From NCBI GenBank assembly GCA_050011435.1, contig JBEKJC010000001.1:85556-149555 (forward strand): 64,000 bases of DNA. The letters run 5' to 3'. This DNA is from Candidatus Binataceae bacterium (GTDB taxonomy: Bacteria; Desulfobacterota; Binatia; Binatales; Binataceae). The position numbers and the translations under genes are program-made. Shown here one piece after another: positions 3,471 through 51,335 of this stretch. The first letter of the stretch is position 1. Every line of letters starts with the position of its first letter. The notes below the pieces were generated by a model, which worked only from the letters and a program-made list of their open reading frames with translations, had not been told where the DNA came from and did not search any database.

Positions 3471-3648
3471 TGCGTTTTTCCCCGAGTTCGATGATTTAAT
3501 TCGTAAGACGAGCCACGGTGTAGCTCCAGATGAGCATATCGGCAAAGGCTGTCGCGATGTCAATCGAGGCCGCCTCGTGGGCAGGCCTCGGCAATGAAAC
3601 GTTGTTTGCCGGACCAGTCTGGCGCTTCGAGCAGAATTGCACGGCTGA

Positions 3649-4527: not shown

Positions 4528-4651
4528 AAGCGCCTTCCAATCCGGTTTATTTCAGTTGGTAAAATTGTACCGAGTGAGTATGCGATCGTCCGGGCCGAAA
4601 ACTCAGAAGCAACCCGCTGCATGTCCAGCGCACGAACCCGCCGGATTCGAA

Positions 4652-5869: not shown

Positions 5870-5942
5870 AAGACGCTTCCCTCGAAAGAGCAGACTCTAA
5901 TGCGGCAGGCGCGGCGCGGTCTACAGCGGAAAGTGAAATCGG

Positions 5943-10360: not shown

Positions 10361-10378
10361 CTGAAGGCCCAGCGTATT

Positions 10379-12595
10379 TCAGAATTGCGGGACTTCCAAC
10401 CAGATTATCGCTAGCGGCGGAAGTATCAGCGACAATGAAAACTCGAGGCCGTGATGGGCGGTATGCTCGGCCATCACCGCGCCGGCATTGCCGACATTGC
10501 CGCCGCCATAGCTATTGGAATCGGTATTGAGAATCTCGCGATAAAGTCCGGCGGCCGGAACCCCCACGCGATATCCATTACGCACTACCGGCGAGAAATT
10601 GCAGACGCAGATTATCCGGCGGCCGCGCTGCGGCGCGATGCGCATAAACGCGACCACATTGTCGTCCACATTGTCGGCGTCGATAAAGCGAAACCCGCTC
10701 GGGTCGCCATCCGCTTCCCATAGCGCCGGCTCTTCCCGATAGATGCGGTTCAAGTCGCGCATCAGCGCCTGCAGTCCGCGATGGTCGTCGTATTCAAGCA
10801 GGTTCCAGTCCAGGCTCTCGTCGTGGTCCCACTCGCGCCATTGGCCGAATTCGCCGCCCATGAAGATCATCTTCTTTCCCGGACGCGCCCACATATAGCC
10901 ATAGAGCGCGCGCAGATTGGCGAACTGCTGCCCGCGATCGCCCGGCATCTTCGAGAGCAGCGATCCTTTCCGATGCACGACCTCGTCATGCGACAGCGGC
11001 AGGATGAAGTGCTCGCTCCAGGCGTATAGAAAACCGAACGTCACGTCGCGATGGTGATAGCGGCGGTATATCGGATCCTTCGAAAAATACTCGAGCGTGT
11101 CGTGCATCCAGCCCATGTCCCATTTGAAGCCGAAGCCCAGGCCGCCCAGGTAGATCGGACGGCTGACCGCGGGCCATGCGGTCGATTCTTCGGCGATCAT
11201 CATGATTCCCGGATTGCGCGCATATGCCGCGGTGTTGAGCGCCTTGATGAAATCGACCGCCTCGATATTTTCGCGACCGCCATACTGATTCGGAATCCAT
11301 TCGCCCTCGTTGCGCCCGTAATCGAGGTAGAGCATCGAGGCCACCGCGTCCACGCGCAGTCCGTCCGCATGATATTCGCCAAGCCACCACAGCGCGCTGG
11401 CGACCAGGAAGTTGCGCACTTCATCGCGGCCATAGTTGAAAATGTAGGTATCCCACTCGGGATGATGGCCTTTGCGCGCGTCCAGATGTTCATACAGCGC
11501 GGTGCCGTCGAAGCGGCCGAGCGCAAACGCATCGGTCGGGAAATGCGCCGGTACCCAATCCAGGATCACGCCGATTCCGCGCCGGTGCAGATAGTCAATC
11601 AGATAGCGAAAATCGTCGGGACTGCCGTAGCGCGCGGTCGGCGCAAAATAGCCAGTCACCTGGTAACCCCACGAACCGGTAAACGGATGCTCCATCACGG
11701 GCATCAACTGGACATCCGTGAAGCCCATCTCGGTGACGTAGTCGGCCAGCATCGGCGCCAATTCGCGATAGGTAAGCGTTCGGTTTTGCTCTTCGGGCAC
11801 TCGCCGCCACGACCCCAGATGCACCTCGTAAATCGATAGCGGCGATCGCGCCGCATCGCGCCGCCCCCGCGCCTCCATCCACTCGCCGTCGCCGAAAACA
11901 AAGTCCGATTGATATGTCACCGAAGCGGTCGCCGGTGGCGCCTCCGCCGCCGCCGCAAAAGGATCGGCCTTCAGCAGCAGGTCGCCGTCCCGCGTCCGGA
12001 TCTCAAACTTGTAACGCGCGCCGACTCCAATTCCCGGTATAAACAGCTCCCAGATTCCCGACGGACCGAGCGATCGCATCAAGTGGATGCGCCCGTCCCA
12101 ACCGTTGAAATCGCCCACCACGCTGACGCCGCGCGCGTTTGGAGCCCAGACCGCAAAGGCGAAGCCCGCGGCATCGTCGATCTCACGCGCGTGTGCCCCG
12201 AGTTTTTCGTAAATCCGTTCGTGCCGCCCTTCGTTCCACAAATGCAGGTCGAGGCTCCCGATCGTCGGCAAAAACGCGTAAGGGTCGCGAAACGTCACGA
12301 TCTCGCTGTCTGAGTAATGCACGCGCAGTTGATACGGGAAGACTTCGGCGCGATCCTTGATTAGCACTTCGAACAGGCCGCGCGGATCGATGCGCGCCAT
12401 GCGCCACGAATGTGCATCGCCGGCGATTACCGAGACCTGCTTTGCATCCGGCCGAAACGCCCGAATCGTGACACCTTCCGCGCCTGGATGCGCCCCGAGA
12501 ATCGAATGGGGATCCTGATGGCGCAGCGTGATCAGCCGTTCCAACTCCGCGGTCGCAATGCCGCCGCGATTCACCTCGGTGCCGGACTCCTTCAC
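10379..12595 (-). CDS. glgB: 1,4-alpha-glucan branching enzyme
   Basis: 738 aa. N-terminal CBM48 region followed by a GH13 core with DWVPAHF and GLRVDAV motifs. Confidence 0.9.
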
Positions 12596-12982
12596 TGCCC
12601 CTCCTCGCCCTCCATGAATTCCACTTCGACCAGCGCTGGTTGCGCGCCTCCGCTCTTCTCACCCAATGGTATTATATCCGTGATGCGCGCGCTGCGGACC
12701 TTGTCGGCATAATCCCGCAGCCGTCGACATTGCCGCAGGCAAAGCTTGGATTGCGCCATCGTTGCGTTAAACTCCCGCTCAAGAGATTTAGCAGGGTGTC
12801 AAGCAACCGTGAAAATGCCAATTTCGGCGACGCGCTATCCCACCTCGCCCCCGAACTGATGCGCCGCCCTATGAGGATATTCGACAATCCAGTGATGCTG
12901 CTCTATTGCCCACCCGAAGGCGTGCGTCAGATTAAAGGCTCGCGCATGATCGCAATCGCCCTCCGAATGTGCCCGTACCCCG

Positions 12983-14410
12983 ATGGCCACGCGCGGTAAC
13001 CCTCGCCTCGTTCCGGCCGGGGCCTCGTCCGCGGCCTTCGAGATCGCGGGCGACGAGGTCGCCATCGGCAGTGCGCCCGGCAACGATCTCGTCGTTGGCG
13101 ATCCCACCGTATCGCGCCGTCACGCGACCATCGCACGCCACCATAATCGCGTGCGGCTGACCGACCTCGGCGCGACCAACGGAACTTACGTCAACGGCAG
13201 CCGCATATCGAAACCGGTTGACCTCAAGGACGGCGATGAGCTTCGCTTCGGCGCCGCGATCTTTCGCTTTGCCGCGAGCGCCCCCGCGCGGCGTTCGGGT
13301 CCGCGCGCCATCCCCGCAATCGTCGCGCTCGTGCTCATTTTCGCCGCCGGCTTTGCGGTTACCCTGCATATGGTTAATTTCAACCGCCTCCAGCAGGCCG
13401 CCGAAATCTCGCCCCCGCCATCTAGCTCGACCAACGGAATTTCGCCGCGCGTTGCAGGCTCATCCGCCGCCGGCCCCGCTGCCGGTGCGACCGCTCGACC
13501 CGAGGCTCCCGCTATACCTCCACTGCCCGCGCCGACTGCATCGCCCGTTACCGCCGTCCACGATTCTATCCCCCTCGCGGATCGCCTGTGGCTCGACCCG
13601 CTAAATCGGTATCGCCAAAGCGCAGGCGTCCCTCCGGTGACCGCTAATTCGAACCTCAGTCGCGGCGATTATCTGCACTCGCGCTATATCGTAAAGAACT
13701 TCGGCGCGCGTCTCGCCGCCCGTGAGAACCTCGGTCCCGAGATGCACTTCGAAGATTCGTCAAAACCCTGGTACAGCGTCGCGGGAGCGGCTGCGGGCCG
13801 CGCCGGCGATGTCGACGAGATGTGGAATCCGCGTGGCACCGCGTCGCCCTCATGGGCGCTCGACAATTGGATGCAGTCGCCCTTCCATCGGCTACCCATC
13901 CTCAATCCGCATCTGCACAGCGTCGGCTATAGCTACTATTGCGAGGGCGCAATGTGTATCGCCGCGCTCAATCTCAACAGCGACGTCGACCCCATATTGT
14001 CCGCGCCGGCGCCTTTCGCGACGCCGATCGAGTACCCGCCCAACGGCGCCTCGATTGAGATGAATTCGTTCGATGGAGAATGGCCCGATCCTCTCGCGAG
14101 TTGCTCCGGCTACTCACTACCGGCCGGATACCCAATTACTCTTCAGCTCGGTTCGATGGTTAATCCCGGCTTCACCAGTGTCTCTTTCAAGCGTACGGCG
14201 CCCGCGTCCGCCACGCTCGAAGCCTGCGCGTTCGACGGCAATTCCTATCGCAATCCGGATCCGGGAACACAGAAGATGATCCGCTATCAACTGATCAACT
14301 TCGGCGCGATCGTCATCATGCCGCGCGCTCCGCTCACGCGCGGTACCTACTCGGTGTCGATAGTCGCCGGGGGCCGCGACTACTCATGGTCCTTTGCCGT
14401 CGAACATTGA
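12983..14410 (+). CDS. FHA domain-containing membrane protein with a C-terminal extracytoplasmic domain (possibly CAP/SCP-like)
   Basis: N-terminal FHA signature: VVGDPTVSRRHATIARHHNRVRLTDLGATNGTYVNG...DGDELRFG. One transmembrane segment, AIPAIVALVLIFAAGFAV, a Pro/Ser/Ala-rich linker, then a roughly 250 aa Cys-containing domain. Confidence 0.65.
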   Translation: MATRGNPRLVPAGASSAAFEIAGDEVAIGSAPGNDLVVGDPTVSRRHATIARHHNRVRLTDLGATNGTYVNGSRISKPVDLKDGDELRFGAAIFRFAASAPARRSGPRAIPAIVALVLIFAAGFAVTLHMVNFNRLQQAAEISPPPSSSTNGISPRVAGSSAAGPAAGATARPEAPAIPPLPAPTASPVTAVHDSIPLADRLWLDPLNRYRQSAGVPPVTANSNLSRGDYLHSRYIVKNFGARLAARENLGPEMHFEDSSKPWYSVAGAAAGRAGDVDEMWNPRGTASPSWALDNWMQSPFHRLPILNPHLHSVGYSYYCEGAMCIAALNLNSDVDPILSAPAPFATPIEYPPNGASIEMNSFDGEWPDPLASCSGYSLPAGYPITLQLGSMVNPGFTSVSFKRTAPASATLEACAFDGNSYRNPDPGTQKMIRYQLINFGAIVIMPRAPLTRGTYSVSIVAGGRDYSWSFAVEH

Positions 14411-14450
14411 CCATATTGATCATAGCCTCATCCCAAGCAGGCGCAGTGTC

Positions 14451-16115
14451 CTACTCACTTGCGCCCTTCGCATTGCGCTCGAATACGCAGTTAATCAGCG
14501 CCTGGGCTTCATGCTGAATCACCCGCAAATGCTCGATGTCCCGAAAACTCTCCGCGTAAATCTTGTAAACCTCTTCGGTCCCCGATGGCCGCGCGGCGAA
14601 CCACCCGCTCTTGGTCACAACCTTGAGTCCGCCAATCGCCGCTCCGTTGCCGGGTGCGGTAGTCAACTTCGCGATAATTTTCTCTCCCGCGAGTTCATCA
14701 GCCTCCACCTGTTCGGGCGCCAACTTCGCGAGGATCGCTTTCTGCCGTGGAGTCGCCGGCGCATCGATACGTTCATATACCGGCGTGCCAAACTCGCGCA
14801 TCAGCGCGGTGTATAGTTCCCCCGGGTCGCTGCCCGTTTTCGCGGTCATCTCCGCGGCCAGCAGCCCCAGGATGATTCCGTCCTTATCGGTCGTCCACAC
14901 GCTGCCGTCCATCCGCAGGAACGATGCGCCCGCGCTTTCTTCGCCGCCAAAGCCTAGCGAACCATCGCTCAGTCCATCGACGAACCACTTGAAGCCCACC
15001 GGCACCTCGACCAATCGCCGTCCCAGCTTTGCCGTCACGCGATCGATCATGCTGCTGCTGACGACGGTCTTGCCCACTGCCGCGTCTCTCGGCCAGCTTT
15101 TACGGTTCTCGAACAAATATGCTATCGCTACTGCCAAATAGTGATTTGGATTGAGCAATCCCGCCGTGCGAGTGACTATTCCGTGCCGGTCGTTGTCGGT
15201 GTCGTTGGCAAACGCTACGTCGAAGCGATCGCGCATGCTCACAAGTCCGGCCATCGCGTAGGGAGAAGAACAATCCATCCGAATCTTGCCGTCCCAATCG
15301 ACGCGCATGAAGCGAAAGGTCGGGTCCACGCTGTCGTTCACCACCGTCGCGGCGATCCCGTAACGATCGATGATCGGACCCCAGTAATGCACCCCCGCCC
15401 CGCCCAGCGGATCCACGCCGATTCTCACGCCCGCACTGCGAATCGCCTCCATATCGACGACCTTGCCCAAATCGGCGACGTAATTATCAATGAAGTCGTA
15501 TCGATGAGTCGTCGGCGCAGCGAGCGCCCTGGTCATTGGCACTCGCGGTACGCCCAACAGGTCCGCGGCCATAAGTATATTGGCCTGCTCCTCGATCCAT
15601 TTTGTGGCCTTGCTATCGGCGGGTCCGCCGTGCGGGGGGTTGTATTTCAAACCGCCGTCGGCCGGTGGATTGTGTGACGGCGTTATCACGATGCCGTCGG
15701 CTAGTTTCGATTTTCGACCGCGATTGTACGTGAGGATTGCGTGCGACACCGCCGGCGTCGGCGTATAACCGCGATTCCGATCGATCATGACCTCGACACG
15801 GTTCCCGGCCAGAACCTCCATCGCGCTGGCAAACGCCGGCTCGGAAAGCGCGTGCGTATCGATGCCGAGAAACAGCGGCCCATCGATACCCTGGCTCTTG
15901 CGATAGATGCAGATCGCCTGCGTGATGGCGATGATGTGGTATTCGTTGAAGGCGCTGTCGAAGGCGCAGCCGCGATGGCCCGAGGTGCCGAACGCCACTC
16001 GCTGTGCTGCGATCGACGCGTCCGGCCGCTCGCTGTAATATGCGGTTATCAGGCGCGGCACGTTCACCAGCGTTTTCGGATCGGCGAGCTTGCCCGCAAG
16101 TGGACTGATATTCAT
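14451..16115 (-). CDS. pgm: Phosphoglucomutase, alpha-D-glucose phosphate-specific
   Basis: 554 aa. GTSGHRG active-site loop and TPSHNP metal-binding-loop context. Confidence 0.9.
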
Positions 16116-16163
16116 AAGTGAAACCTGTTCGCGTCGATATCGTGTCGATATCGTATTCCGGTT

Positions 16164-18563
16164 CTAGTACGGCCACCGCCAATTGGTGATCTCGGGCCGA
16201 TCGATTCCATTCTCCTGCGCGTATTCGAGATGCCCGCAAATCTCGTCCTTGAGCCATTCCTTTATGTGCGCTCCCGACGATTGCAGCTTCGGTACGCGGT
16301 CGATTACATCGATTGCCAGGTTGAAGCGATCGGCCTGATTATTAATCGCCAATTGTAGCGGTGTATTGATGTTGCCTTTTTCCTTGTAGCCCCGCACGTG
16401 CATGTTGTCGTGATTGCTGTGCCGATACGCGAGTTTGTGTATCAGCCACGGATATCCGTGAAAATTAAAGATTACCGGTTTATCAACTGTGAATAGGCTG
16501 TCGAAGTCGCGCTCGGAAAGACCGTGCGGATGCTCGCTCTGCGGCGCCAGCCTGAAAAGATCGACCACGTTGACGAAGCGAATCCGCAAGGCCGGAAATT
16601 TATCGCGCAGGATCGCCGTCGCCGCCAACGCTTCGATTGTCGCCACGTCCCCCGCCGATGCCATTACTACATCGGTCTCGCCGTTCTGATCCGTTGACGC
16701 CCAGTCCCACAGCCCGATCCCCTTCGTGCAATGTTTGACGGCTTCTTCCATCGTCAGGTACTGCGGATGCGGTTGTTTGTCGGCCACGATCACGTTGACG
16801 TAGTTGACGCTGCGCAAGCAATGGTCACCGACGCTCAATAGGCAGTTCGCGTCCGGCGGCAGATAGATGCGCGTCACCGCCGGGCTCTTGTTGGTGACTA
16901 CGTCGATGAAGCCCGGATCCTGATGCGTGAAGCCGTTATGATCCTGCCGCCACACCGTCGAGCTGATGAGTATGTTGAGCGATGATATCGGCGCTCGCCA
17001 CGGCACCGACGTGATGCTCTTCTCGATCCATTTTGCGTGCTGATTTACCATTGAGTCGATGATGTGCGCGAACGCTTCGTAGGTGTTCAGCAGGCCGTGC
17101 CGTCCGGTCAGCAAATAGCCCTCCAGCCAACCCTCCAGCGTATGCTCGCTGAGCATCTCCATCACGCGCCCGTCGGGCGCGAGTTCGCTGCCGTCGCTGT
17201 CCTCGGGCTTGTATTCGGCGAGCCAGGTCTTCTTGCTTGCTTCGTAAATCGCGTCGAGTTTGTTGGAGGCGGTCTCGTCCGGCCCGAAGACCCGGAAGTT
17301 GTCCATGTTCTTGCGCATTACGTCGCGCAGGAATTGCCCGAATACATAAGTATTCGGCGCTTCCGAATGGCCGGGGCGCGTGACCTTCACCGCATAATCG
17401 CGAAACCGCGGCAGCTTGAGCGGTTTGCGCACCAGCCCACCGTTGGCGCGCGGATTCGCGCTGATGCGGCGATCGCCGGCCGGCGCCATTTCCCGCAGTT
17501 CAGGCATCGGCGCCCCGCGCTCGTCGAATAGCTCTTCCGGACCATAACTGCGCATCCACGTCTCGACCATTTTCAGATGAGCCGGGTTAGTCACAGGATC
17601 CGTTATCGGCACCTGATGCGCGCGCCAGAAGCCTTCCAGCCGCTTGCCGTCGATCTCCTTCGGACACGTCCAGCCCTTCGGCGTGCGCATCACGATCATC
17701 GGCCATCGCGGACGGCTCGCGCCCGCCGCACCGCCTTTGCGCGCATTTCCCTGGATCTCGCGAATCTCCAGGATGCAGCGCTCCAGCGTCCCGGCCATCA
17801 TCTGATGCACCGCCCGCGGTTCGTCACCCTCCACAACGTAGGATTTATAGCCATATCCGGAGAGCAGGCTGTCCAGCTCCTCGGGCGCGATACGCGCCAG
17901 GATTGCAGGATTCGCGATTTTGTAGCCGTTCAGATGAAGAATCGGCAGCACCGCACCGTCGCGCACCGGATTGAGAAATTTGTTCGAGTGCCACGATGTC
18001 GCCAGCGGACCGGTTTCCGCTTCGCCGTCGCCAATCACCGCCACTGCGATCAGTGCGGGATTGTCAAAGACCGCGCCGTACGCGTGCGACAAGCTATAGC
18101 CGAGTTCTCCCCCCTCGTGGATCGAGCCCGGAGTTTCGGGCGTGCAATGGCTGCCGATGCCTCCCGGAAATGAGAAAAGCTTGAAGAACTGCCGCATCCC
18201 CTCGGCGTCGAGACTGCGGTCCGGATAGACTTCCGAATACACGCCCTCGAGATAACTGTTCGCGAGCGTCGCCGGCGCACCGTGGCCGGGCCCCGACAGA
18301 TAGAGCACGTCCAGATCGTAATTCTTGATGAGGCGGTTTAGATGTACCCAGACTAGCGACTGGCCGGGGTCGGATCCCCAGTGGCCGAGTAAGCGATTCT
18401 TGATGTGCTCGGGCTTCAGCGGCTCGCGCAACAGCGGATTGTCCTGCAGATAGAGCATCCCTGCGCTGAGGTAATTGCAGGCGCGCCAGTAGGCGTTGAG
18501 CCTGCGCAATTCGTCCGCGCTCAACGCCGCTTGCGGCGTTTGCCTGCCCATGTTCGATGCCAT
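16164..18563 (-). CDS. xfp: Xylulose-5-phosphate/fructose-6-phosphate phosphoketolase
   Basis: 799 aa. [23 protein letters not shown] and the TPP-binding region are characteristic of the XFP family. Confidence 0.9.
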
Positions 18564-18923
18564 CTGGCTTCTCCTCGATTTTCCGTTCGCTCATTCGTGC
18601 CGTCGCGATCGGTTGCGGCTCCGTGAAAGCGCAGCGGCGCGTCGCCGTCCCTCGAATGCTGACGCGGCCCGATGATCTAGGCAAGCTTGAATTCCCGCGC
18701 GCCGCGAACGCACAAGCACAATTCATGTTCCCGAAATGTGACTATTGCGGCACGACACCCCGCCTCGGCAGTTCCCCTCGCGGCCGGCCCCGCGCGACGA
18801 ATCGTAGCGCATCGGCGACAACGGCCGTTAGCCGATCCGGTGCGACGCGCCGATCGCAGTGCCCGCCGCGGCCTGCCGGCCTGCCGTTATGCATCGACAA
18901 ATGCCGGACCGCTTATCCGTGCG

Positions 18924-19826
18924 TTACTGTTGCTGGCCGCCGGGAGATCCGCCGGAGGTGCCACCGTTGTCGGTGAATTCGACGCGAAGATCGACCGTCA
19001 TCAGCGCCTCGCCGCCGCCGTTGCGGTACACCCCCCGCAATGGCGGGACGTCGGCGTAGTCGCGTCCGATCGCAACTACGATATGGCGTCCATCTGTAGC
19101 GCATCGATGCGTCGGATCGTAGCCGCACCAGCCGAGGCCGGGTAGCCACGCCTCCAGCCACGCGTGACTCGCCTGTGCCGTCACGTCCAATCCGCTGCTC
19201 GCCGCCAGCGGCGCAAGATAGCCCGAAACGTAGCGCGCCGGGACTCCCGCCAGGCGCAAAATTCCGATAGTGAGATGGGCGAAATCCTGGCATACGCCGC
19301 CGCCGCTATTGAGTATGTCGTTCAGACTCGAATGGACATGCGTCGACCTGGTTTCATATTCAAATTGGTCGCGTACATACTCCACCATCCGCATCACGTA
19401 GCTTCCGATGTCTTCCTGTTCCTGCGGACGCGCCATCCAGAAAAATTTTCGCAGCCGTTCGCTGAACGGTATAAACTCACTTGGACTGAGATACTCACAA
19501 TAGACATTGTTGCGGACCGCGTCGCCGCGCAAAAATTCGGCCAAAGTGACGCCGGTTGTCGCAGGTGTCGCGGGCGGCTCCACTTCGACGATCGATTTTG
19601 CGACAATCTCCAGCTTGCGATGCGGTACGCTCACCGAGATCGAATGTGCTCGATTGCCGAAGAAATCGCTGTATTCCACCGTCGACGCCGGCTCATTGAC
19701 GCTCAAATCGAAGGCCAGGCAGCGCTGGCCGTCGCGATCCCACGGGCGCATGCGCAACTCGTTCTGCGAGTCGGAGGCCGGCTCCGCATACTCGAACCGC
19801 GTCGTATGGATTATACGGTAGCGCAT
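18924..19826 (-). CDS. Transglutaminase-like family protein (Bact_transglu_N plus transglutaminase core)
   Basis: Start moved to the internal ATG that begins MRYRIIHTTRFEYAEPASDSQNELRMRP, the typical N-terminus of this family. The core contains a CQDFAHL-like Cys motif. Confidence 0.75.
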   Translation of the reverse strand: MRYRIIHTTRFEYAEPASDSQNELRMRPWDRDGQRCLAFDLSVNEPASTVEYSDFFGNRAHSISVSVPHRKLEIVAKSIVEVEPPATPATTGVTLAEFLRGDAVRNNVYCEYLSPSEFIPFSERLRKFFWMARPQEQEDIGSYVMRMVEYVRDQFEYETRSTHVHSSLNDILNSGGGVCQDFAHLTIGILRLAGVPARYVSGYLAPLAASSGLDVTAQASHAWLEAWLPGLGWCGYDPTHRCATDGRHIVVAIGRDYADVPPLRGVYRNGGGEALMTVDLRVEFTDNGGTSGGSPGGQQQ

Positions 19827-19836
19827 CCGGGCCGCC

Positions 19837-20778
19837 TCAGCCAAGCGCCATATACTCGCCGTATAGCGAATCCGAGATGTTCGAACATTCCTGCTCCACC
19901 TTGAGCAGAAATTCGTGCAGCCCCTCGCTAATCGCCTGGCTGGCGCTACTGGTACGCAGCAGCGCGAGCAGGCTGTCCGAGACCAGTTGATGGGATATAT
20001 GAGAGGCGCCCTGCGCGGCCACGCGTTCCACCGCCGCCGCCAGCCGCTCCGCACTGAAGCGCGCCGACCGCGGAAAGTTCGGATCGAACAGCAGGATCTC
20101 CACTACCCGATCGACGCGAATCGAATAGCCATAAAGTTTCCGAAATGCTTCCAGCGCCGACGCGCTGCGCAATACTGCCGCCCATTGACGCCCGTCCGAC
20201 GGTCCGCCGATATCCTCTAGTTGCGGAAGCAAATAGTGGTACTTCACATCGAGCAGCCGCGCGACGTTGTCCGCCCGCTCCAGCATCGTCCCGATCTCAA
20301 GGAAATCGTACGAAAGATCCCGCGGCATCGTGCTGCGGATAATTCCCGTAATCGAGTAAAAGTGATTGCGCAGATCCGTGAAGAAAGTCGAAAACCCCTC
20401 GCTCGCGAGCAATCCCGGCGACCAGTTCCGCGAGTCCAGGTATAGCTCGTTCATCTGCAGCCACATCTCCGACGAGATGCTATTGCGCAGCGCGCTCAAA
20501 TTCGTCCGCGCCGCTTCGATACAACTGCGAATCGACGACGAGTTCTCGCGATCGAACGTGAAAAAATCGACCACCGACGCCTCGTCCGCATGCGCATAGC
20601 GCTGCGCGAACAGCTCGCGCTCGCCGGTTATCCCGAGCAGCGGCTCCCACGGATCGGCCGCGCGCGGCGGCACCTCGAGATTCAAATTGTAATTGACGTC
20701 AACCAGCCGCGCCCGCCATTGCGCCCGCTCCAGATAGCGCGCCGCCCAATATAAGTGATCTGCGATGCGCCGCAGCAC
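19837..20778 (-). CDS. Alpha-E domain protein (DUF403)
   Basis: 313 aa, N-terminus ADHLYWAARYLERAQ, helical. Lies between the circularly permuted ATP-grasp and transglutaminase genes. Confidence 0.7.
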   Translation of the reverse strand: MLRRIADHLYWAARYLERAQWRARLVDVNYNLNLEVPPRAADPWEPLLGITGERELFAQRYAHADEASVVDFFTFDRENSSSIRSCIEAARTNLSALRNSISSEMWLQMNELYLDSRNWSPGLLASEGFSTFFTDLRNHFYSITGIIRSTMPRDLSYDFLEIGTMLERADNVARLLDVKYHYLLPQLEDIGGPSDGRQWAAVLRSASALEAFRKLYGYSIRVDRVVEILLFDPNFPRSARFSAERLAAAVERVAAQGASHISHQLVSDSLLALLRTSSASQAISEGLHEFLLKVEQECSNISDSLYGEYMALG

Positions 20779-22253
20779 TAGTTTTCGAGCACCCAGGTGT
20801 CCTTGCTGCCCCCGCCTTGCGAGGAATTGACGATGAGCGATCCTTCGCGCAGCGCCACCCGCGTCAGTCCGCCCGGCAGCACCCGCGGCCTCGCTCCCAG
20901 CAGCACGAACGGCCTCAGATCGACATGGCGCGGTACCAGGCTCGCATCGCTACTCCCGGCCAGCGTCGGATGCACCGAAAGTTGAACCACCGGCTGCGCG
21001 ATGAACCCCGCCGGGTCGTGCTCGATTCGCGCGCGCGTCTCGGCCAGCTCCTGCCCGCTCGCCTTGGGTCCAATCACCACCCCGTAACCGCCCGAGGCGC
21101 CGGTCGGCTTGATCACGTAGCGTTCGAGGTCGCGCAGCACGTGCTCGCGCACTTCCGGGTCGCGCAGCAAGTGCGTCTCGACGATCGGTATTAGCGGCGC
21201 CTCATTGAGGTAGTATTTGATCATCCGCGGCGTGTACGCGAAGACCGCCTTGTCATCCGCGATCCCGGTGCCGATCGCATTCGCGACCGCGACATTACCC
21301 GCACGCAGCACCCCCGTCAGCCCCGGCACTCCCAGCAGCGAATCGGGCCGAAACACCACCGGATCGAGAAAGTCATCGTCAACCCGCCGGTACAGCACGT
21401 CGATTTGCCGCAGGCCGTAAACCGTCTTCATGAATAACTTGTGATCGACGCAGACCAGGTCTCGCCCCTCGACCAGATCCACTCCCATCTGCTGCGAAAG
21501 AAAGACGTGCTCGAAGAACGCCGAATTGAACGGCCCCGGCGTCAGCACCGCCACCGTCGGATCCGATGAACTCGCCGGCGAGAGTTCCCGCAATGACGCC
21601 AGCAGATCCGCCGGGTACCGCTCGACGCTGCGCACCTTCAGCGCGCGTATCAACTCGGGCATCAGCCGCGTCATGATCACGCGGTTCTCAATTACGTAGG
21701 AGACGCCCGACGGCGTCCGCACATTGTCCTCGAGCACGTAGAAGCGCCCGTCCGATCCGCGCACCAGGTCGATTCCCGCGACCGTCACGAACGCCTGATG
21801 AGGCACCTTGATTCCCACCGCCGCGTGGCGAAATTGTCCCGACCCCACTATCAGGTCGCGCGGCACCACCCCGTCTTTGAGAATCGCGCCTTCGCCGTAA
21901 ATGTCCGCCATGAAGGCGTTGAGCGCGCGCACCCGCTGGATCAACCCCGCCTCGATTCCCGCCCACACCTCTGCCTTGATAATTCGCGGTACCGGGTCGA
22001 ACGGGAAGATCCGCTCGCTGCCGTCCTCGTTGCCGTAGACGTTGAAGGTGACGCCCATGCGCAAAAACATTTCGTGCGCCCGCTCGCCCAGCTCGGTCAG
22101 CCGCCGCGCGTCCATCGACAACAGGTAATTCACCACGCGCGCGCATTCGGGCCGCGGACGGCCGTCGAGTTCGAACATTTCGTTCATCGGCAGAGTTGTC
22201 TCTACCGATGCCTTCAATTCCGGCATCTGATTGCTCAAGAGCTGTGCATCCAT
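20778..22253 (-). CDS. Circularly permuted type-2 ATP-grasp protein (DUF404/DUF407)
   Basis: About 490 aa from the internal start MDAQLLSNQ...; the family is conserved next to alpha-E and transglutaminase genes. Overlaps the alpha-E start by 1 nt. Confidence 0.75.
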   Translation of the reverse strand: MDAQLLSNQMPELKASVETTLPMNEMFELDGRPRPECARVVNYLLSMDARRLTELGERAHEMFLRMGVTFNVYGNEDGSERIFPFDPVPRIIKAEVWAGIEAGLIQRVRALNAFMADIYGEGAILKDGVVPRDLIVGSGQFRHAAVGIKVPHQAFVTVAGIDLVRGSDGRFYVLEDNVRTPSGVSYVIENRVIMTRLMPELIRALKVRSVERYPADLLASLRELSPASSSDPTVAVLTPGPFNSAFFEHVFLSQQMGVDLVEGRDLVCVDHKLFMKTVYGLRQIDVLYRRVDDDFLDPVVFRPDSLLGVPGLTGVLRAGNVAVANAIGTGIADDKAVFAYTPRMIKYYLNEAPLIPIVETHLLRDPEVREHVLRDLERYVIKPTGASGGYGVVIGPKASGQELAETRARIEHDPAGFIAQPVVQLSVHPTLAGSSDASLVPRHVDLRPFVLLGARPRVLPGGLTRVALREGSLIVNSSQGGGSKDTWVLEN

Positions 22254-22609
22254 GACCTTGCGTCCATCCGCGCGGCGGCAAAATGCCGCTATCCACGCTA
22301 CTGTGCGATCACGACAGCAAGTCGTGTGCCCCGCTCTATCCACGCTTCCGTGATTTCAGTGTCGCCGTGAAGCGCGTCGCATACCCGGGCGCCCGGGCAG
22401 CGATTCCGTTGGCGGGCATACATTTGCGCGACTTACGCTCCCGCGGGCAGGCCGTATTGCCCCGCTGCGGACGTGGCCCTGAGCGGCCCGTCCGCCTTCG
22501 CCGCTAAATCCGCGCCGAACTTTTACGCGCGGTCGAGCGCGGTCCGATTGTGCTTTGAGGAAGTGAGGCTGGAGACGAGCGGGTCGGTTCCATACAACCC
22601 GCGCATCCG

Positions 22610-23053
22610 TCAGAGCTCGATCCAGAACGTGTCTTTAATCCCGTTCGCGTACGAGATGCGCTTGGGTTTCACCCGCACCATGCGCAGCGTGTCGTTGCTG
22701 AAAAACGGCGCCTCGAACGGGTTCTTCTTGAGAAACGCCGCCTTCATCTTTTCCCATTCCGAGGTGTCGCGCGGGACTTCGATCGCCTCGCCCTGCACCG
22801 ACGCCCGCGCAATCTCGAACGTCGCCACCTTGCCGACGTCGCGCGTGTCCACCAGCACCGTCACCTTGGGATGTTTGGTCAGGTTCTCAAACTTCTCGGA
22901 ACTGAAGCGCATGATAAACAGCAAGTCGAGGTCCGCGGTCTCGGCGAACGCCTGCATGGTGCCGGTCGGCCACTGGTCGCCCTGCGTGATCAGTACCGCT
23001 ACCTGCTCCTGGCCGAACAGTTTCAACAATTTTTCTTTCTGCTCAGCGTTCAC
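22610..23053 (-). CDS. Pyridoxamine 5'-phosphate oxidase-like FMN-binding protein (general stress protein 26 family)
   Basis: 147 aa with split-barrel composition; slightly lower GC than its neighbours. Confidence 0.55.
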   Translation of the reverse strand: MNAEQKEKLLKLFGQEQVAVLITQGDQWPTGTMQAFAETADLDLLFIMRFSSEKFENLTKHPKVTVLVDTRDVGKVATFEIARASVQGEAIEVPRDTSEWEKMKAAFLKKNPFEAPFFSNDTLRMVRVKPKRISYANGIKDTFWIEL

Positions 23054-23367: not shown

Positions 23368-23607
23368 CTACTTTTCGATCCGCAATCGCCAGACTCCATC
23401 CGCTTCCTCGATCCGCATGATTGCGTAACCCTCGGCCTCGGCCGCGCGCGGGATATCGCGGGCTCCGCGCGGGTCATCGATAGTCAGTTCGATCGTCTCG
23501 CCGCGGCTCATCGCTTCGAGCCGGACCTTCGCGTGCGCCCAGTTCAGTGGGCATTTGAGGCCGCGCAAGTCGAGCCGAATGATGCCGTCAGCGTCCATCC
23601 CCGTCAT
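23368..23607 (-). CDS. TusA-like sulfurtransferase
   Basis: 79 aa with the LDLRGLKCPLN motif; the conserved CPxP cysteine is present. Confidence 0.7.
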   Translation of the reverse strand: MTGMDADGIIRLDLRGLKCPLNWAHAKVRLEAMSRGETIELTIDDPRGARDIPRAAEAEGYAIMRIEEADGVWRLRIEK

Positions 23608-23855: not shown

Positions 23856-24479
23856 ATGCCGTTTAAGATCACGATGTATTCCGATTTCATTTGCCCCTTC
23901 TGTTACATCGGCTTTGAAGTTTTTCGCAAGCTCAAGCCGGAATTCGATCTCGAACTCGACTGGCGCGGCTTCCAGATACATCCGGAATGGCCGGCGGAGG
24001 GTATGCCCGCGGCCCAGTGGCGCAACGGGATGGACGCGGACACGCGCCGTGCGATTTGGGAACGCATCAAAGCGATGGCGGTGGCGGCCGGCTTCGAAAT
24101 GAAGGCGCCCGAGACCCTGACCAATTCGCGGCTCGCACTCGAGGCCGCCGAGTTTGCCAAAGAGGCGGGTGCCGGCGAGGCCTTCGAGGAGCGCGTCTAT
24201 CGCGCGTATTTCTACGAGGGGCGCAATATCGGCAGCCAGGCGGTGCTCGCCGATCTCGCCGCCGACGTTGGCCTTTCGCGCGACGACCTCAATCTGGCGC
24301 TCGAGTCGAATCGCTATTCGCTGCGCCTCAAGAACAACTCGCTGATCGCCCACCGCAACGGCGTCAGCGGGGTGCCGACGTTTTTCATCGGCGACTATCC
24401 GTTGGTCGGAGCGCAGAGCGAGGACGTCATGCGCCAGGTGCTCCAGCGCGTGAGCCAGCGCCTTGCGGCGGCCAAATAG
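23856..24479 (+). CDS. DsbA/FrnE-like thioredoxin-fold oxidoreductase
   Basis: Starts MPFKITMYSDFICPFCYIG; CPFC active site. The upstream part of the listed ORF lies inside a repeat element, so the start is set at 23856. Confidence 0.7.
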   Translation: MPFKITMYSDFICPFCYIGFEVFRKLKPEFDLELDWRGFQIHPEWPAEGMPAAQWRNGMDADTRRAIWERIKAMAVAAGFEMKAPETLTNSRLALEAAEFAKEAGAGEAFEERVYRAYFYEGRNIGSQAVLADLAADVGLSRDDLNLALESNRYSLRLKNNSLIAHRNGVSGVPTFFIGDYPLVGAQSEDVMRQVLQRVSQRLAAAK

Positions 24480-30629: not shown

Positions 30630-33215
30630 TTATTCGGCGAGGAGGCGGCGGCGGACGAAGACTTCGGCGAGCAGCAGGAAAATCGCGAGCGGCGCCAAGA
30701 TGGAATCGATCGAGCGGTAATCGGTCACGGCCGCGCCCGCGGGATGAGTCATGCGTGCGATGCTGGCGTCGAATTGGCCGCCGGTCTGCGTCGCGATTTG
30801 CCTGAGCAATGACAGATTGGGCGGCTGGATGCGGAGTTCGGCGCTATTGGCGGATTCCGATCCGGTGACTGCGATGTCACGCCGCAGCAAGACCCGTTCG
30901 GTATCGCCGGCTTTGAACATCAGGGTGACGACGTACTTGCCGCGGGGCATCGGCGCAGTTTCGCCGCGATAGAGCGTCGCGCCCGTCTGCGTCATCGCAA
31001 CATCCACGGCATGGCGCGGTCCGCTGATGCGGGCGAAGAGATTGCTGACCGGCATCGCGTCGGCCTTGTCGGCGTCGATGGTCAAGGCGCCGTCGGGGGC
31101 GTTGGCGACGCGCAAGGAGAACGGGCCGGAGTCGCCGGCGCGCGCCACCCAGTTGACCAGTTGCGACCAGAATTCGGCGTAGCGGTTCCATCTGATCCAC
31201 GCGAGCGAGCCGATCGAGTCGGGATCTGCGACGAAGACGGCGCTGCGTCCGAGTTCGTATTGCCATGTGGTCAGCAGGGGCGAAGTCCGCGTAGGGCTGC
31301 GAATGACGAGGGGAACCTCGGCGCCGTCCTTGGTGTGGGTGTCGGCAAAGAAGTCGATGGGTGGGATCTCGGCGGGCCGGATGCCGTTGAGGATGGAGCT
31401 GGGTGCCGCCAGATCGACGTGAGTGCGATTGCGGCGCTTGAAGTTCTGGGCCTCGTGGGTGAGATGCACGAGCAGTTGCGGCAGGCGCTTGATATCTTCG
31501 ACGCGGTAAAAAATCCCGCCGGAGTTATGGGCGAAGTCCTGCAACAGTCGCAGGTTCTCAAGGTCGGGACCGATGCGGATGGTCGAGACGGGTATATTGG
31601 TCCGCGCATAATCGGCCATCAATTGGTCGTGATCGTGGTATTGGCGATTGGTATCGCCGTCGGTAAGCAGGATCACTTCGCGGACCGGAAGCCCGGTCGC
31701 CAGGATTTCGCGCTGGGCGATTTCGAGCGCTTCCTTGAAGTCAGTGCCGCCGCCGGGCGCGAGGCGTGAGACGCGGCTGAGCAACTCGTCGCGGTCCTCG
31801 CCGAGCGGCCGCAGATGGCCCAGCACATAAGGCTCGGAGTCGAAGGCGATGACGCCGGCGTAGTCGGTATCGTCGAGCTGGTTGAGCAGCGCGATGGCGG
31901 CTTCCTTGGCGTAATGGATGCGTTCGCCGTCGCGCACTGCCGGGAAGCGCGAGTTGTAGCTCATCGAGTTGGATCGATCGATTAGCAGATAGACCGCGAT
32001 GGGTTCGCGCGAGGGTGGCGGGGGTTGCGGCTGGAACTCGATGGGTAGAGTTTTTTCGAGCGCGCCGCCATGAAATTTGGAATCGCGCAGGGTGTCGCCG
32101 GTGACGATCAGACCGCCGCCGTAATCGGCGACGTAGCGATTGAGAGCGGACTGGACTTCGGGGGCGAGCGCGTCGGCGGTGACGTTGGCGATGATGACGG
32201 CCTGATAACCGAGGTAATCGGCGGCGCGCGGCGAGAGCCCGTGCGGGCCGGCGTTGGCGACGTCGAAATTGCGCAGTTCGAGCGCTTTGACGAGGCTCTC
32301 CGGCGGCGAATTCGCAATTAGCAGGACGTGCGGGGGCGGCGCGACTGAAACGGCCGCCACCGCGCTGCCGTTGACCAGTGCGAGATCGGGTGCGACCTCG
32401 ATCGCGGCTTTTAGAATGTAGGCGCCGGGCCGATCGATTTCGTAAGGCAGCTCGAAGCGATTGATCCCGGGCCGGAGCTGGACCTGCCGGCCGCCGAGCG
32501 CACCGCCTTCGCCATAGAGGCGGATGTGCGCGTCGACGGGATAGCTGGCCTCGCTCGCAATATCAAGATGGAGGGCGAAGCTGGTCTGGGCGTGCACGGT
32601 TGACGGCGCGTCGAAGCCGGTGAGCGCGATGCGGGCGACGGCTGACGGTGGGGGCGCGGTGGTGAAGACACGGACGCCGGCCTCGGACAGGGCGGGCAAT
32701 TCGTCGGTCGCGCGGTTGGTGGTTTCAACGCCGTCGCTCAGCAGGACGAGGCGTTTCTCGTCGATCGGCGGGAAGACGCCGGCGGCGGTGATCAGAGCGC
32801 CGGCGATATCGGTCGCGCCAGTGTCGGCGCCCGCGGCGGATAAGGTGAGCAGGCGCGGATCGCTCAGCGGGGCGAGCAGTTGGGCGTCGCGGCCGAAGCC
32901 GATGACGGCCAGGCGATCGCGTGGGTCCATCGCGCGACGGATCGCCGCGATCCGTTGGAGCATCCATCGGCGCTGGTCGGGGGCGATCGACTGCGATTGA
33001 TCCATCGCAACGACCACGGTCATGCGATGTGCCGCGGCCTTGAACGGCAGGCGCGCACCCGCGAGCATCAGGATGAGCGCGGCGAAGACGCCGATGCGGA
33101 GCACGGCGGAGAGAGCGCCCGCGAGCGGACGTCCCGCGCGAATCGCGAGGACGCCGGGAACGGCGACGATCGGCGCGAGCGCGAGCAGCCACAGGAGCAG
33201 CGGCCGTTCAAACAT
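30630..33215 (-). CDS. Large membrane-anchored VWA-domain protein (BatB-like)
   Basis: 861 aa. N-terminal transmembrane segments, two VWA-like regions (DxSxS-type VVVAMDQSQSI and LLIDRSNSMS), and a C-terminal transmembrane segment. Confidence 0.7.
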   Translation of the reverse strand: MFERPLLLWLLALAPIVAVPGVLAIRAGRPLAGALSAVLRIGVFAALILMLAGARLPFKAAAHRMTVVVAMDQSQSIAPDQRRWMLQRIAAIRRAMDPRDRLAVIGFGRDAQLLAPLSDPRLLTLSAAGADTGATDIAGALITAAGVFPPIDEKRLVLLSDGVETTNRATDELPALSEAGVRVFTTAPPPSAVARIALTGFDAPSTVHAQTSFALHLDIASEASYPVDAHIRLYGEGGALGGRQVQLRPGINRFELPYEIDRPGAYILKAAIEVAPDLALVNGSAVAAVSVAPPPHVLLIANSPPESLVKALELRNFDVANAGPHGLSPRAADYLGYQAVIIANVTADALAPEVQSALNRYVADYGGGLIVTGDTLRDSKFHGGALEKTLPIEFQPQPPPPSREPIAVYLLIDRSNSMSYNSRFPAVRDGERIHYAKEAAIALLNQLDDTDYAGVIAFDSEPYVLGHLRPLGEDRDELLSRVSRLAPGGGTDFKEALEIAQREILATGLPVREVILLTDGDTNRQYHDHDQLMADYARTNIPVSTIRIGPDLENLRLLQDFAHNSGGIFYRVEDIKRLPQLLVHLTHEAQNFKRRNRTHVDLAAPSSILNGIRPAEIPPIDFFADTHTKDGAEVPLVIRSPTRTSPLLTTWQYELGRSAVFVADPDSIGSLAWIRWNRYAEFWSQLVNWVARAGDSGPFSLRVANAPDGALTIDADKADAMPVSNLFARISGPRHAVDVAMTQTGATLYRGETAPMPRGKYVVTLMFKAGDTERVLLRRDIAVTGSESANSAELRIQPPNLSLLRQIATQTGGQFDASIARMTHPAGAAVTDYRSIDSILAPLAIFLLLAEVFVRRRLLAE

Positions 33216-35076
33216 GGGACGCCCTCCAGCGTATCGCGCGCTGGGTCAACATGATCGATTCGCCGAGCAAGGCGAGCAGGGCGAGGATCACCAACGGGAT
33301 AGCGATCGGGCGCACGCTGAGGCGCGACGGGCCTGCCGCGGCGATGGGCGACGGCGACGATGAAGTCGCGGAGGCGCTGGGCGGCGCGGATAAGTCGGAT
33401 TCGCCGGCGTCGTAATAGTTCGCATAGACAGCGACGGCGGGGACGTTACTGGTTACCAGGTAGCGCCCGGTCTGGAGCGTGCGAAAGCGGACGCGGCCCC
33501 ATTGGTCGGGCACGAGAGACCGCATCGTGCCGTCGGGCGCGGTGAGCCGGGCGTGCGCCCCCGCGGCGACGGTGACAAACGAGCCGGTCGGCTCGATGAG
33601 GACGTCGCGCGGGGCGACCAGCCGGCGCAGCAGGTCGATCGCGAGCACCAGCGCGTCCATGCGATCGGGATCGAGCAACAGATGGTCGCGCACGTCGAAG
33701 GCCAGCACGCCGACGAGAGCGTCGCCGTCGAAGCCGAAGGCGGCGAGCGGGAAACTCTCATGTTCGCCGACGCTGACGCCGCGCGCGATCGGTTCCATCC
33801 AGGGGGGCGGGGCCAGCACCCGCGCCGGCCCGAGCATGACGGGCGCGCTCAAGGTGCCAGCGTCGGCGCGCTCCTGCAGCTCGGCGAGCGCGACCGAGCG
33901 GGTGACGGGCACCAGTTGCGGACGCTTGGAGCCGTCGAGCGGCGGCTCGGGAAAAATCAGCAATCGGGAATCGGCGTTGACGCCTTGATCGGGGCTGTCA
34001 TGAATAATGGCGAGATCGAAGTGTTGGGAACGCTTGAATGAATCAGGGTCGGCGGCGGTCACGAGAAAATTTGGATTAATCGCGAGCACGATGCGGGCGA
34101 GGTCGTCGCGCACCGCCGCGTCGCGCGACAGCACCAGCGCATGCGCATGCGCGATGCTCGGGGCGAGGGCCCAGCGCTGATTGTCGGCGGCGAGGGCGTC
34201 GGGCGTGGCGATGCGCGCATTGACGAGGCCGCCGGCGGCCAGCGGGCCGAAGGGCACCACGATTTCGGCGCGCGGCTCGGCGATGAGCATCGAATGGAAG
34301 ACCTCGCGGCCGGCGGCTTCGATCACCAGATCGCAGTACTGCGGGCGATTGGAGAAGTTGCGCACGACGCAACGGCCGACGGTCGAGCGGGGCACGCCGG
34401 CGTCGAGCGAGACAATGGCGAGATTGGGCGCGGGTGTGCCGACCTGATGGAAATTGAGGCGGCCGGCGAGGCCGGCATCGTCGATCGCGGCGGCGGGTGG
34501 CGGACGGTCGGCGAAGAGATCGATTTGGTCGGCGGCACGCGCACGCATCAGGGCGGCGCGCAGGGCCGCGGGCCGCGCGGCAACGGCGGCGGGCGTTAGC
34601 GCAGCCAGAGCATCGCGCGCTTCTTGCGGGCCCGAACCGGCGGCGCGGAAGGTCTCGGCTTCGAGCGCATAGCCGGAGACGGTGAAGCGATCGCCTGCGG
34701 GAGCGTTGGCGATAATTTGCGCGGCGGCGTGGCGAGCTTCGTCGAGGCGCGAGCTTCCATGATCGCCGGTGGTGGCGCCCATCGCGGCGCCCAAATCGAA
34801 CACGAGGGCATGGCGATGATTGGTCCCGGCGGGTTGATTGACGCGGACATAGAGGCCCGCGACCGCCAGCGTAATCGCACCGAGCGCCAATGCCTCGAGC
34901 CAGAAGAGTCGATCGACGCGCAGCAGCCGGCTCTTGGCGACGGGCGCCGGAACTTCCTCGAAGAGCATCAGGCTGGACACCTCGAGGGTCGGGCGAGAGC
35001 GCGCGCGCAGGTAGATCGCGAGGAGAGCAGCGAGGCTCAGCGCATAGAGCAGATTCAATGGATTGAGCAGGCCCAC
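33208..35076 (-). CDS. BatA-like protein (aerotolerance regulator N-terminal domain plus VWA)
   Basis: N-terminus LNPLNLLYALSLAALLAIYL, then a VWA-like region VFDLGAAMG. Confidence 0.6.
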   Translation of the reverse strand: MGLLNPLNLLYALSLAALLAIYLRARSRPTLEVSSLMLFEEVPAPVAKSRLLRVDRLFWLEALALGAITLAVAGLYVRVNQPAGTNHRHALVFDLGAAMGATTGDHGSSRLDEARHAAAQIIANAPAGDRFTVSGYALEAETFRAAGSGPQEARDALAALTPAAVAARPAALRAALMRARAADQIDLFADRPPPAAAIDDAGLAGRLNFHQVGTPAPNLAIVSLDAGVPRSTVGRCVVRNFSNRPQYCDLVIEAAGREVFHSMLIAEPRAEIVVPFGPLAAGGLVNARIATPDALAADNQRWALAPSIAHAHALVLSRDAAVRDDLARIVLAINPNFLVTAADPDSFKRSQHFDLAIIHDSPDQGVNADSRLLIFPEPPLDGSKRPQLVPVTRSVALAELQERADAGTLSAPVMLGPARVLAPPPWMEPIARGVSVGEHESFPLAAFGFDGDALVGVLAFDVRDHLLLDPDRMDALVLAIDLLRRLVAPRDVLIEPTGSFVTVAAGAHARLTAPDGTMRSLVPDQWGRVRFRTLQTGRYLVTSNVPAVAVYANYYDAGESDLSAPPSASATSSSPSPIAAAGPSRLSVRPIAIPLVILALLALLGESIMLTQRAIRWRASHV

Positions 35077-35078
35077 GG

Positions 35079-35984: not shown

Positions 35985-35998
35985 CGCTGGTGTTTCCC

Positions 35999-37047
<1,049 letters not shown>

Positions 37048-37051
<4 letters not shown>

Positions 37052-51301: not shown

Positions 51302-51335
51302 AACCACTCCCCCGCTGATGACGGAGACTGATGGA

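Follow-up and report, generated by a model that had tools for sequence, protein, structure and literature searches.

Which reaction is carried out by a bacterial operon that encodes an ATP-grasp protein, an alpha-E protein and a transglutaminase-like protein, and under which conditions is such an operon switched on? The question is raised here by a stretch of DNA of 64,000 nucleotides (nt), referred to below as the window and used for all coordinates, from a Candidatus Binataceae bacterium from peat. The three genes (hereafter the triad) occupy positions 18924-22253, all on the minus strand, and their nearest named relatives are found in Candidatus Binataceae metagenome-assembled genomes. Few bacterial operons without known chemistry are as widespread as the module to which they belong: alpha-E clusters are counted in thousands, and module members are present in Mycobacterium tuberculosis, Pseudomonas, Acinetobacter and rhizobia. 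The window copy is genuine but ordinary, a minimal form of this widespread three-gene module that lacks the peptidase Anbu, and its architecture is not new. The triad is probably a self-contained three-gene operon, and the explanation that we favour overall, with moderate confidence, is that under nitrogen stress this minimal operon would use ATP to modify peptides or proteins covalently or to turn them over, through the mechanism proposed below.

A peptide-modification system made up of COG2308, COG2307 and COG1305 was reportedly recognised in 2009 by Iyer, Abhiman, Burroughs and Aravind as the core of the 'Anbu operon'. In the form in which later papers quote it, the module was predicted through comparative genomics (Iyer et al. 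2009, via PMC5666114 and PMC6376114). The window triad resembles it in having the same three families, gene order, tight coupling and predicted active-type motifs; moreover, nitrogen limitation induces homologues of the module, in agreement with the predicted sigma-54 promoter of the window triad. A preliminary description of this DNA had called the triad widely conserved but uncharacterised and had ascribed to comparative genomics the prediction of a peptide-ligation or protein-modification system. Its interpretation is supported. The former statement is right, since the alpha-E family comprises 5,256 cluster representatives at E<=1e-3 (2,654 at E<=1e-10) and the literature still gives no function for the module (PMC6376114, PMC5666114, 10.64898/2026.04.15.718621). 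What is new here is the sigma-54 element, a fusion argument that works in two directions and a Gln-rich tail on the transglutaminase; these are useful leads, none of which will surprise a specialist. If the chemistry of the module were solved, the role of Anbu, a proposed ancestral proteasome subunit, would also be clarified.

The three genes and their protein families

The genes are consecutive and coupled, as had been described. The ATP-grasp and alpha-E genes overlap by 1 nt, the TAG stop of the former and the GTG start of the latter sharing one base (TAGTG), and a gap of 10 nt separates the TGA stop of the alpha-E gene from the transglutaminase gene. Among metagenome contigs of ENA and JGI samples, at least 23 encode the identical ATP-grasp protein, and six metagenome contigs, whose genes were called independently, carry the identical three genes and domains. 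For the synteny comparison 80 Binataceae loci were fetched with the alpha-E profile, and the three genes stand in the same order in all of them; the order ligase, alpha-E, transglutaminase also occurs in Deinococcus, Ralstonia, Sinorhizobium, Ensifer and Shinella. The three family assignments of the preliminary description all hold by Pfam profile search, and NCBIfam offers a family for none of the three proteins.

The full Anbu operon differs from the window triad by a fourth gene, for the N-terminal nucleophile (Ntn) peptidase Anbu; in the window a fourth gene was found neither for Anbu nor for GAT-2. A tblastn search with Ralstonia Anbu gave zero matches in the window and in the 80 related loci; this query matches Pfam Proteasome and recovers the Acinetobacter Anbu. 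Besides, neither GAT-2 nor DUF2126 amidoligase genes were detected in domain scans of the other genes of the window. The earlier statement that the triad has neither an Anbu nor a GAT-2 partner is thus supported by the tblastn search for Anbu and by the domain scans of flanking genes.

The ATP-grasp protein is of the circularly permuted kind and matches CP_ATPgrasp_2 (PF14403, 5e-154) and CP_ATPgrasp_1 (PF04174, 2e-139), both over the full length of the model, and it is homologous to PDB entry 3n6x over 472 residues (E 4.6e-155). It was aligned with stand-alone homologues of Deinococcus, Ralstonia, Sinorhizobium and Acinetobacter and with copies that are fused to alpha-E in a second kind of system, called type 2 below (Granulicella, Azospirillum, Burkholderia). 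The motifs D162-x12-E175-D-N177, V(I/V)K382-P with its GASGGYG loop, GTGxADDK and NSSQGGGxKDTW are present in the window protein and in all stand-alone copies aligned, an assignment that leans on general knowledge of ATP-grasp enzymes and is made at the level of motifs. The spacing of D162, E175 and N177 equals the D257/E270/N272 pattern of DdlB. In the fused type-2 ATP-grasps (L090 3413-5956, L091 and L094) the E-x-N, the GTGxADDK and the glycine loop are lost (VLADR, GSGLIES and VSMQRGG). This loss serves as an internal control. The window protein falls in the class that retains the Mg-binding signature (acidic residue and E-x-N) and the ATP signature (Lys and glycine loop) of typical ATP-grasp enzymes. 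Judged by these motifs, which are intact, the window ATP-grasp is predicted to be an enzyme of the active type; the putative active-site residues, on whose presence the preliminary description had made its case depend, are there.

The fused copies are consistent with predicted-inactive paralogues that stand beside a transglutaminase-DUF2126 amidoligase. Type-2 systems, of which the M. tuberculosis Rv2566-Rv2567-Rv2569c set gives the pattern, were represented by Granulicella (L090), Caballeronia (L100), Burkholderia (L094) and B. cenocepacia I35_5080-83. They are built from the same domain families and end with a small Bact_transglu_N plus Transglut_core protein. However, their ATP-grasp is fused to alpha-E and predicted to be inactive, and the large transglutaminase-DUF2126 amidoligase would supply the ligase chemistry, whereas in the window the genes are separate, the ATP-grasp is of the predicted active type and a DUF2126 protein was not found. 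As a separate observation, in one Binataceae locus (L070) a 1,103-residue protein of the transglutaminase-DUF2126 type (3862-7173) lies directly upstream of an ordinary triad, so both types of system coexist in Binataceae.

The transglutaminase-like protein belongs to the papain-fold type and matches Bact_transglu_N (2e-25) and Transglut_core (3.3e-23). The Cys-His-Asp triad that the preliminary description had proposed to look for is present as C179, H221 and D237, within the motifs GVC179QDF, SH221AWLE and GYD237PT, which align with PDB 3isr and with Pseudomonas TgpA (6g49).

The alpha-E protein matches PF04168 (2e-83) over model positions 1-294 of 294. Its AlphaFold2 (AF2) model has a mean predicted local distance difference test score (pLDDT) of 88.8 and a predicted template modelling score (pTM) of 0.88, and is all-helical, with 15 helices; a PDB relative was found neither by sequence nor by Foldseek (best E 0.67). 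The protein is an internal tandem duplication, residues 5-147 aligning with 155-305 (hhalign probability 97.3%, E 2e-11), and each half starts with a long helix bearing LER...ARL(V/L)DV.YH (E17-R18 and E167-R168). Among 81 representatives with 29-54% identity, the near-invariant residues are mostly Arg and Glu (R4, R14, E17, R18, R24, R91, R98, E167, R168, R174, D177, R237 and H288). Fusions occur in both directions: ATP-grasp plus alpha-E in an 847-residue protein of Granulicella and, as the complement of this better-known fusion, alpha-E plus Bact_transglu_N plus Transglut_core in two public proteins (P0321 and P0353) of 632-635 residues. Since alpha-E is fused to either enzyme, we infer that it bridges the ligase and the transglutaminase physically. 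It would thus be a non-catalytic bridging subunit, for which the fusions are the best available evidence, and on the same evidence the three proteins are best reconstituted together.

The sigma-54-type element and nitrogen limitation

A predicted sigma-54 promoter, GGCACACGACTTGC, precedes the ATP-grasp gene, and it fits the sigma-54 consensus TGGCAC-N5-TTGCW at each specified position except the first T. In the whole window GGCAC-N5-TTGC has two matches only, this one and another at 51336-51349. Within 150 nt upstream of the triad and on the sense strand, the pattern GGC[AC][CT]-N5-TTGC[TA] is found in 73 of 77 related Binataceae loci, a count that is not to be read as a probability because the loci share ancestry. 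In the rest of their sequence the pattern occurs 5 times in 2.8 megabases, which corresponds to 0.00027 expected matches per 150 nt. The element stays constant while the bases of the spacer and the flanks, even the upstream genes, differ completely between clades. Taken together, the conserved footprint of the sigma-54 type upstream of the triad is clear and marks a predicted promoter dedicated to it. A perfect element, TGGCACTGAAATTGCT, also stands upstream of the Acinetobacter baumannii triad.

A gene for a sigma-54 activator (GAF-AAA-HTH) lies within the window, so the organism has at least one such activator. Related to this, the second match (51336-51349, minus strand) is located between that gene (GAF-AAA+-HTH, 51481-53091, minus) and an open reading frame of 102 codons (50999-51307, minus) that has no match in Pfam and precedes a short-chain dehydrogenase gene (49795-50559, minus). 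Genuine sigma-54 promoters typically occupy such a place, and this match resembles a second one beside its own activator.

Expression data are available for homologues. In B. cenocepacia, the cluster I35_5080-83 ranks with the genes that depend most strongly on sigma-54 and NtrC when nitrogen is limiting (PMC5491218). In P. putida, PP_2685 (Anbu) and PP_2688 (ATP-grasp) are up by log2 4.4 and 4.0, respectively, on nitrate with respect to ammonium (PMC8050072), and Anbu is induced in nitrogen-limited cells of this species (PMC5666114). The predicted promoter agrees with this induction of the Pseudomonas and Burkholderia homologues under nitrogen limitation, and its conservation indicates nitrogen stress as the condition for an assay.

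Proposed reaction and its alternatives

In the mechanism proposed for the triad, transcription would require sigma-54 and an enhancer-binding activator and would probably respond to nitrogen limitation, like that of the P. putida and B. cenocepacia homologues. The three proteins, all cytoplasmic, would assemble into a complex bridged by the pseudo-dimeric, helical alpha-E, and the invariant Arg and Glu residues of the latter may build a scaffold for substrate binding. The ATP-grasp protein would activate a carboxylate as acyl-phosphate and couple it with an amine to form an amide bond; by analogy with glutathione synthetase and GspS/YgiC, this carboxylate is most likely the C-terminal or a side-chain carboxylate of a peptide or protein. 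The transglutaminase-like enzyme would form a thioester with Gln or with an amide of the gamma-glutamyl type, followed by deamidation or hydrolysis or by transfer, and may in this way prepare, edit or reverse the product of the ligase. The orthologous ATP-grasp of Yersinia bercovieri frees phosphate from ATP (PMC6376114).

Foldseek with the AF2 model of the ATP-grasp (pLDDT 65) retrieved 3n6x (E 2e-39, template modelling (TM) score 0.74-0.80), followed by eukaryotic-type glutathione synthetases (6e-12 and weaker), Cp1B, E. coli GspSA (2io7, 3e-6, TM 0.3) and YgiC (2e-5); synapsin, PurK, RimK and Ddl were also matched, which indicates the ATP-grasp fold. Cp1B is a ligase of the E-64 pathway (PMC12568646). 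These nearest characterised folds (glutathione synthetases, Cp1B, GspS and YgiC) all join an amine to the carboxylate of a peptide or a small acid. The eukaryotic-type glutathione synthetase and E. coli GspSA and YgiC share the permuted ATP-grasp fold with the window protein (E 6e-12 to 2e-5) and carry out acyl-phosphate chemistry on a peptide C-terminal carboxylate; they differ from it in that identity is 11-16% and in that they have no alpha-E partner. As for 3n6x (Mfla_0391, a structural-genomics entry), it is a direct homologue, but its deposited name is annotation only, without a defined ligand or activity. Membership of the window ATP-grasp in the GspS family was considered and rejected: hhalign gives no significant match to E. 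coli GspS (probability 0.6%) and the similarity stays at the level of the fold. The label 'putative glutathionylspermidine synthase' of 3n6x should therefore not be taken literally.

The same folds, together with the analogy to GspSA, would favour a metabolite as substrate. The triad could then be a synthetase/amidase couple, comparable to the bifunctional glutathionylspermidine synthetase/amidase GspSA, in which the ATP-grasp makes an amide-linked metabolite (gamma-glutamyl compound, peptide or polyamine) and the transglutaminase hydrolyses it, so that a regulated pool results and not a modified protein. The closest characterised structural relatives are all ligases of small molecules or short peptides, and in GspSA, too, a permuted ATP-grasp goes together with a papain-like Cys amidase, although this is a functional analogy, the amidase of GspSA being a CHAP domain and not a transglutaminase core. 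Moreover, a conserved small open reading frame that might encode a tag or precursor was found in neither of the intergenic regions that flank the triad, and a neighbourhood that changes from locus to locus fits a ubiquitous metabolite substrate. On the other side, the module is linked in many taxa with Anbu, a peptidase of the proteasome type (PMC5666114); the 313-residue alpha-E and Bact_transglu_N have no counterpart in GspSA, whose relation to the window protein was not detected at the sequence level; and the transglutaminase carries a Gln-rich tail, which points to protein-bound Gln as substrate. We regard a couple of this kind as rather unlikely. A protein or peptide substrate is favoured over a metabolite, on the basis of the link with Anbu elsewhere, the large adaptor and the Gln tail.

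This tail is a low-complexity segment at the C-terminus of the window transglutaminase, which ends in ...EFTDNGGTSGGSPGGQQQ. A terminal Gln is present in 72 of the 75 full-length Binataceae orthologues, with QSQQ, QQNQQ, GSQSQ and SQAQ as typical endings. In Binataceae about 25 residues, variable in length and sequence, extend past the last conserved strand, and Gln makes up a fraction of 0.44 of the last 8 residues but of 0.035 of the remaining protein. Orthologues of Sinorhizobium, Ensifer, Shinella and Pararhizobium, which are about 31% identical, have (QS)n endings such as GQSQSQSQS, and these Rhizobiaceae proteins are located in Anbu-less triads. The Gln-rich tail is thus a conserved trait of the Binataceae proteins and, independently, of the Rhizobiaceae ones. 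Among the triads examined it distinguishes the window from the Anbu-linked examples, and it was not found in the Ralstonia and Acinetobacter triads (where Anbu is present), in Deinococcus, in type-2 systems or in stand-alone transglutaminases. As a universal trait of the family it was consequently rejected, and since several lineages lack it, it cannot be the core mechanism.

A disordered, Gln-rich tail on an enzyme from a family that acts on protein-bound Gln is nevertheless suggestive: it may serve as an acyl donor within the enzyme itself, be deamidated as a substrate or act as a pseudo-substrate, and in the Anbu-less triads it is a candidate substrate. In the most elaborate form of this idea, the Gln residues of the tail would be deamidated or would donate acyl groups at Cys179, and the carboxylates would be extended or ligated in cis by the ATP-grasp, with alpha-E, to amino acids or target amines; the result would be a self-priming system of the Pup or RimK kind that sigma-54 switches on under nitrogen stress. 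The idea agrees with a tail that is kept in composition and not in sequence or length, in Binataceae as in Rhizobiaceae, with the Anbu-less state of both groups of triads and with the general knowledge that transglutaminases act on protein-bound Gln and that Pup ends in GGQ. Against it stand the lineages and systems without the tail and the fact that low-complexity Q/S tails can come from repeat slippage. We consider it improbable.

The comparison with Pup, Dop and PafA extends beyond the tail. Both systems would combine a Gln-to-Glu deamidation with a subsequent ATP-dependent ligation of carboxylate and amine, and they share a disordered tail ending in Gln, a link with a peptidase of the proteasome family in some taxa and a link with the survival of nitrogen starvation. 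However, PafA is glutamine-synthetase-like whereas the window ligase is an ATP-grasp, no separate gene for a small tag was found near the triad, and the Gln tail of the window is carried by the enzyme itself, in some lineages only. The assignment of the triad to pupylation-like tagging was rejected on account of the ligase type and of the lack of a conserved small open reading frame at its flanks.

Several observations weigh against the favoured explanation, a minimal operon for peptide or protein modification. The catalytic residues of the ATP-grasp are assigned at motif level only, and its AF2 model is mediocre (pLDDT 65, from a shallow alignment); the comparison with GspS, one of the enzymes on which the proposed chemistry is modelled, was not significant, as given above. 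The sigma-54 promoter is a prediction from sequence, and the regions before the Ralstonia and Sinorhizobium triads showed no matching element. Co-expression and pull-down of the Y. bercovieri proteins detected no stable complex, and in the same study Anbu activity was not found (PMC6376114). The literature gives neither substrate nor product for any member of the module. Of the M. tuberculosis proteins, Rv2411c and Rv2567 in lysates produced no GABA-trehalose (GABA, gamma-aminobutyric acid) in a single assay, Rv2411c being a negative control only (10.64898/2026.04.15.718621), and Rv2569c has been reported as a secreted serine-type, E-64-insensitive protease that acts on E-cadherin (PMC11081392). 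The latter report is hard to reconcile with a cytoplasmic, Cys-dependent partner and is also awkward with the fold of Rv2569c.

Genomic neighbourhood and other features

The coordinates of the triad, its functional sites and its neighbours are collected in Table 1.

Table 1. Features of the triad and adjacent genes in the window
Feature	Position	Strand	Remarks
ATP-grasp gene	20778-22253	minus	ATG start, 491 aa
Alpha-E gene	19837-20778	minus	GTG start, 313 aa
Transglutaminase gene	18924-19826	minus	ATG start, 300 aa
Predicted Mg/ATP residues of the ATP-grasp	D162 (21768-21770), E175-D176-N177 (21723-21731), K382 (21108-21110)	minus	motif level
Catalytic triad of the transglutaminase	C179 (19290-19292), H221 (19164-19166), D237 (19116-19118)	minus	by alignment
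Low-complexity C-terminal tail, ends in Gln	18927-18974	minus	TDNGGTSGGSPGGQQQ
Predicted sigma-54 promoter (-24 GG / -12 GC)	22317-22330	minus	GGCACACGACTTGC, 64 nt upstream of the ATP-grasp ATG
TusA	23368-23607		upstream of the triad in transcription
PNPOx-like gene	22610-23053		upstream of the triad in transcription
Phosphoketolase	16164-18563	minus	downstream of the triad in transcription
Phosphoglucomutase	14451-16115	minus	beyond phosphoketolase

In the direction of transcription the order is TusA, PNPOx-like gene, triad, a spacer of 360 nt, phosphoketolase and phosphoglucomutase. The preliminary description had placed the triad immediately downstream of phosphoketolase and upstream of the PNPOx-like gene. 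The adjacency to both genes stands, whereas the wording of upstream and downstream is true in plus-strand coordinates only; it is inverted with respect to transcription because the triad genes lie on the minus strand.

Only where alpha-E identity is at least 77% is the triad followed by phosphoketolase and phosphoglucomutase, and even so one of these loci (L010) has no phosphoketolase. The group of TusA, the PNPOx-like gene and a divergent DsbA-like gene (23856-24479) precedes the triad in its closest relatives and, beyond these, in only a few more distant loci (L017, L036 and L038). The remaining loci, about 60, have unrelated genes at both flanks. The neighbours thus vary from locus to locus while the triad stays, and the adjacency to phosphoketolase and the PNPOx-like gene is therefore local synteny and not a part of the system. 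Conservation in the 360-nt spacer is confined to one block, about 110 nt ahead of the start of phosphoketolase (about 18655-18685, minus strand; CTTGCCT(A/C)GA...GGCCGCGTCAGCATT); the block occurs only where the locus has phosphoketolase, is common to L007-L009 and missing in L010, and is probably a promoter or operator of phosphoketolase itself.

These data bear on the suggestion that the triad is tied to its neighbours (phosphoketolase, phosphoglucomutase, the glycogen/trehalose genes, PNPOx/TusA), for example by modifying enzymes of carbon storage. That these genes adjoin the triad, both in the window and in its closest relatives, would fit such a tie, and treY is also induced by nitrogen limitation in P. 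putida (PMC8050072). However, the linkage is limited to close loci, so that synteny largely refutes it, and phosphoketolase has its own upstream block just as the triad has its own predicted promoter. A functional link with phosphoketolase, phosphoglucomutase or PNPOx/TusA was accordingly rejected, and we hold this explanation to be very improbable.

The possibility of an anti-phage defence or toxin-like module deserves hardly any credence. Some conflict systems do contain transglutaminase-like and ATP-grasp domains, but nothing here is specific for them: PADLOC gave zero hits for the five proteins tested, the triad is chromosomal, vertically conserved across the family and surrounded by housekeeping genes, and its homologues are nitrogen-regulated.

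An Rfam scan of the region from 14 to 26 kb returned nothing meaningful, and simple scans for terminators and sigma-70 promoters stayed at background level. In five Binataceae loci (L041, L043, L047, L054 and L058) a related convergent gene on the opposite strand lies 11-125 nt from the transglutaminase stop.

Downstream of the triad, a cluster for carbohydrate storage extends over 5943-18563 (minus strand), with two genes of the alpha-amylase family (5943-7682, DUF3459, and 7679-10360), glgB (10379-12595), phosphoglucomutase and phosphoketolase; it is broken by a gene with FHA and CAP domains on the opposite strand (12983-14410). A Bat/MoxR-VWA cluster occupies 30630-38445 (minus) and comprises a MoxR-type AAA ATPase (35999-37051), a DUF58 gene (35079-35984) and two BatA/VWA genes (33208-35076 and 30630-33215). 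Finally, two adjacent genes with Methane/Phenol/Alkene hydroxylase domains (934-3563, minus) resemble genes for the subunits of a soluble monooxygenase of the di-iron type.

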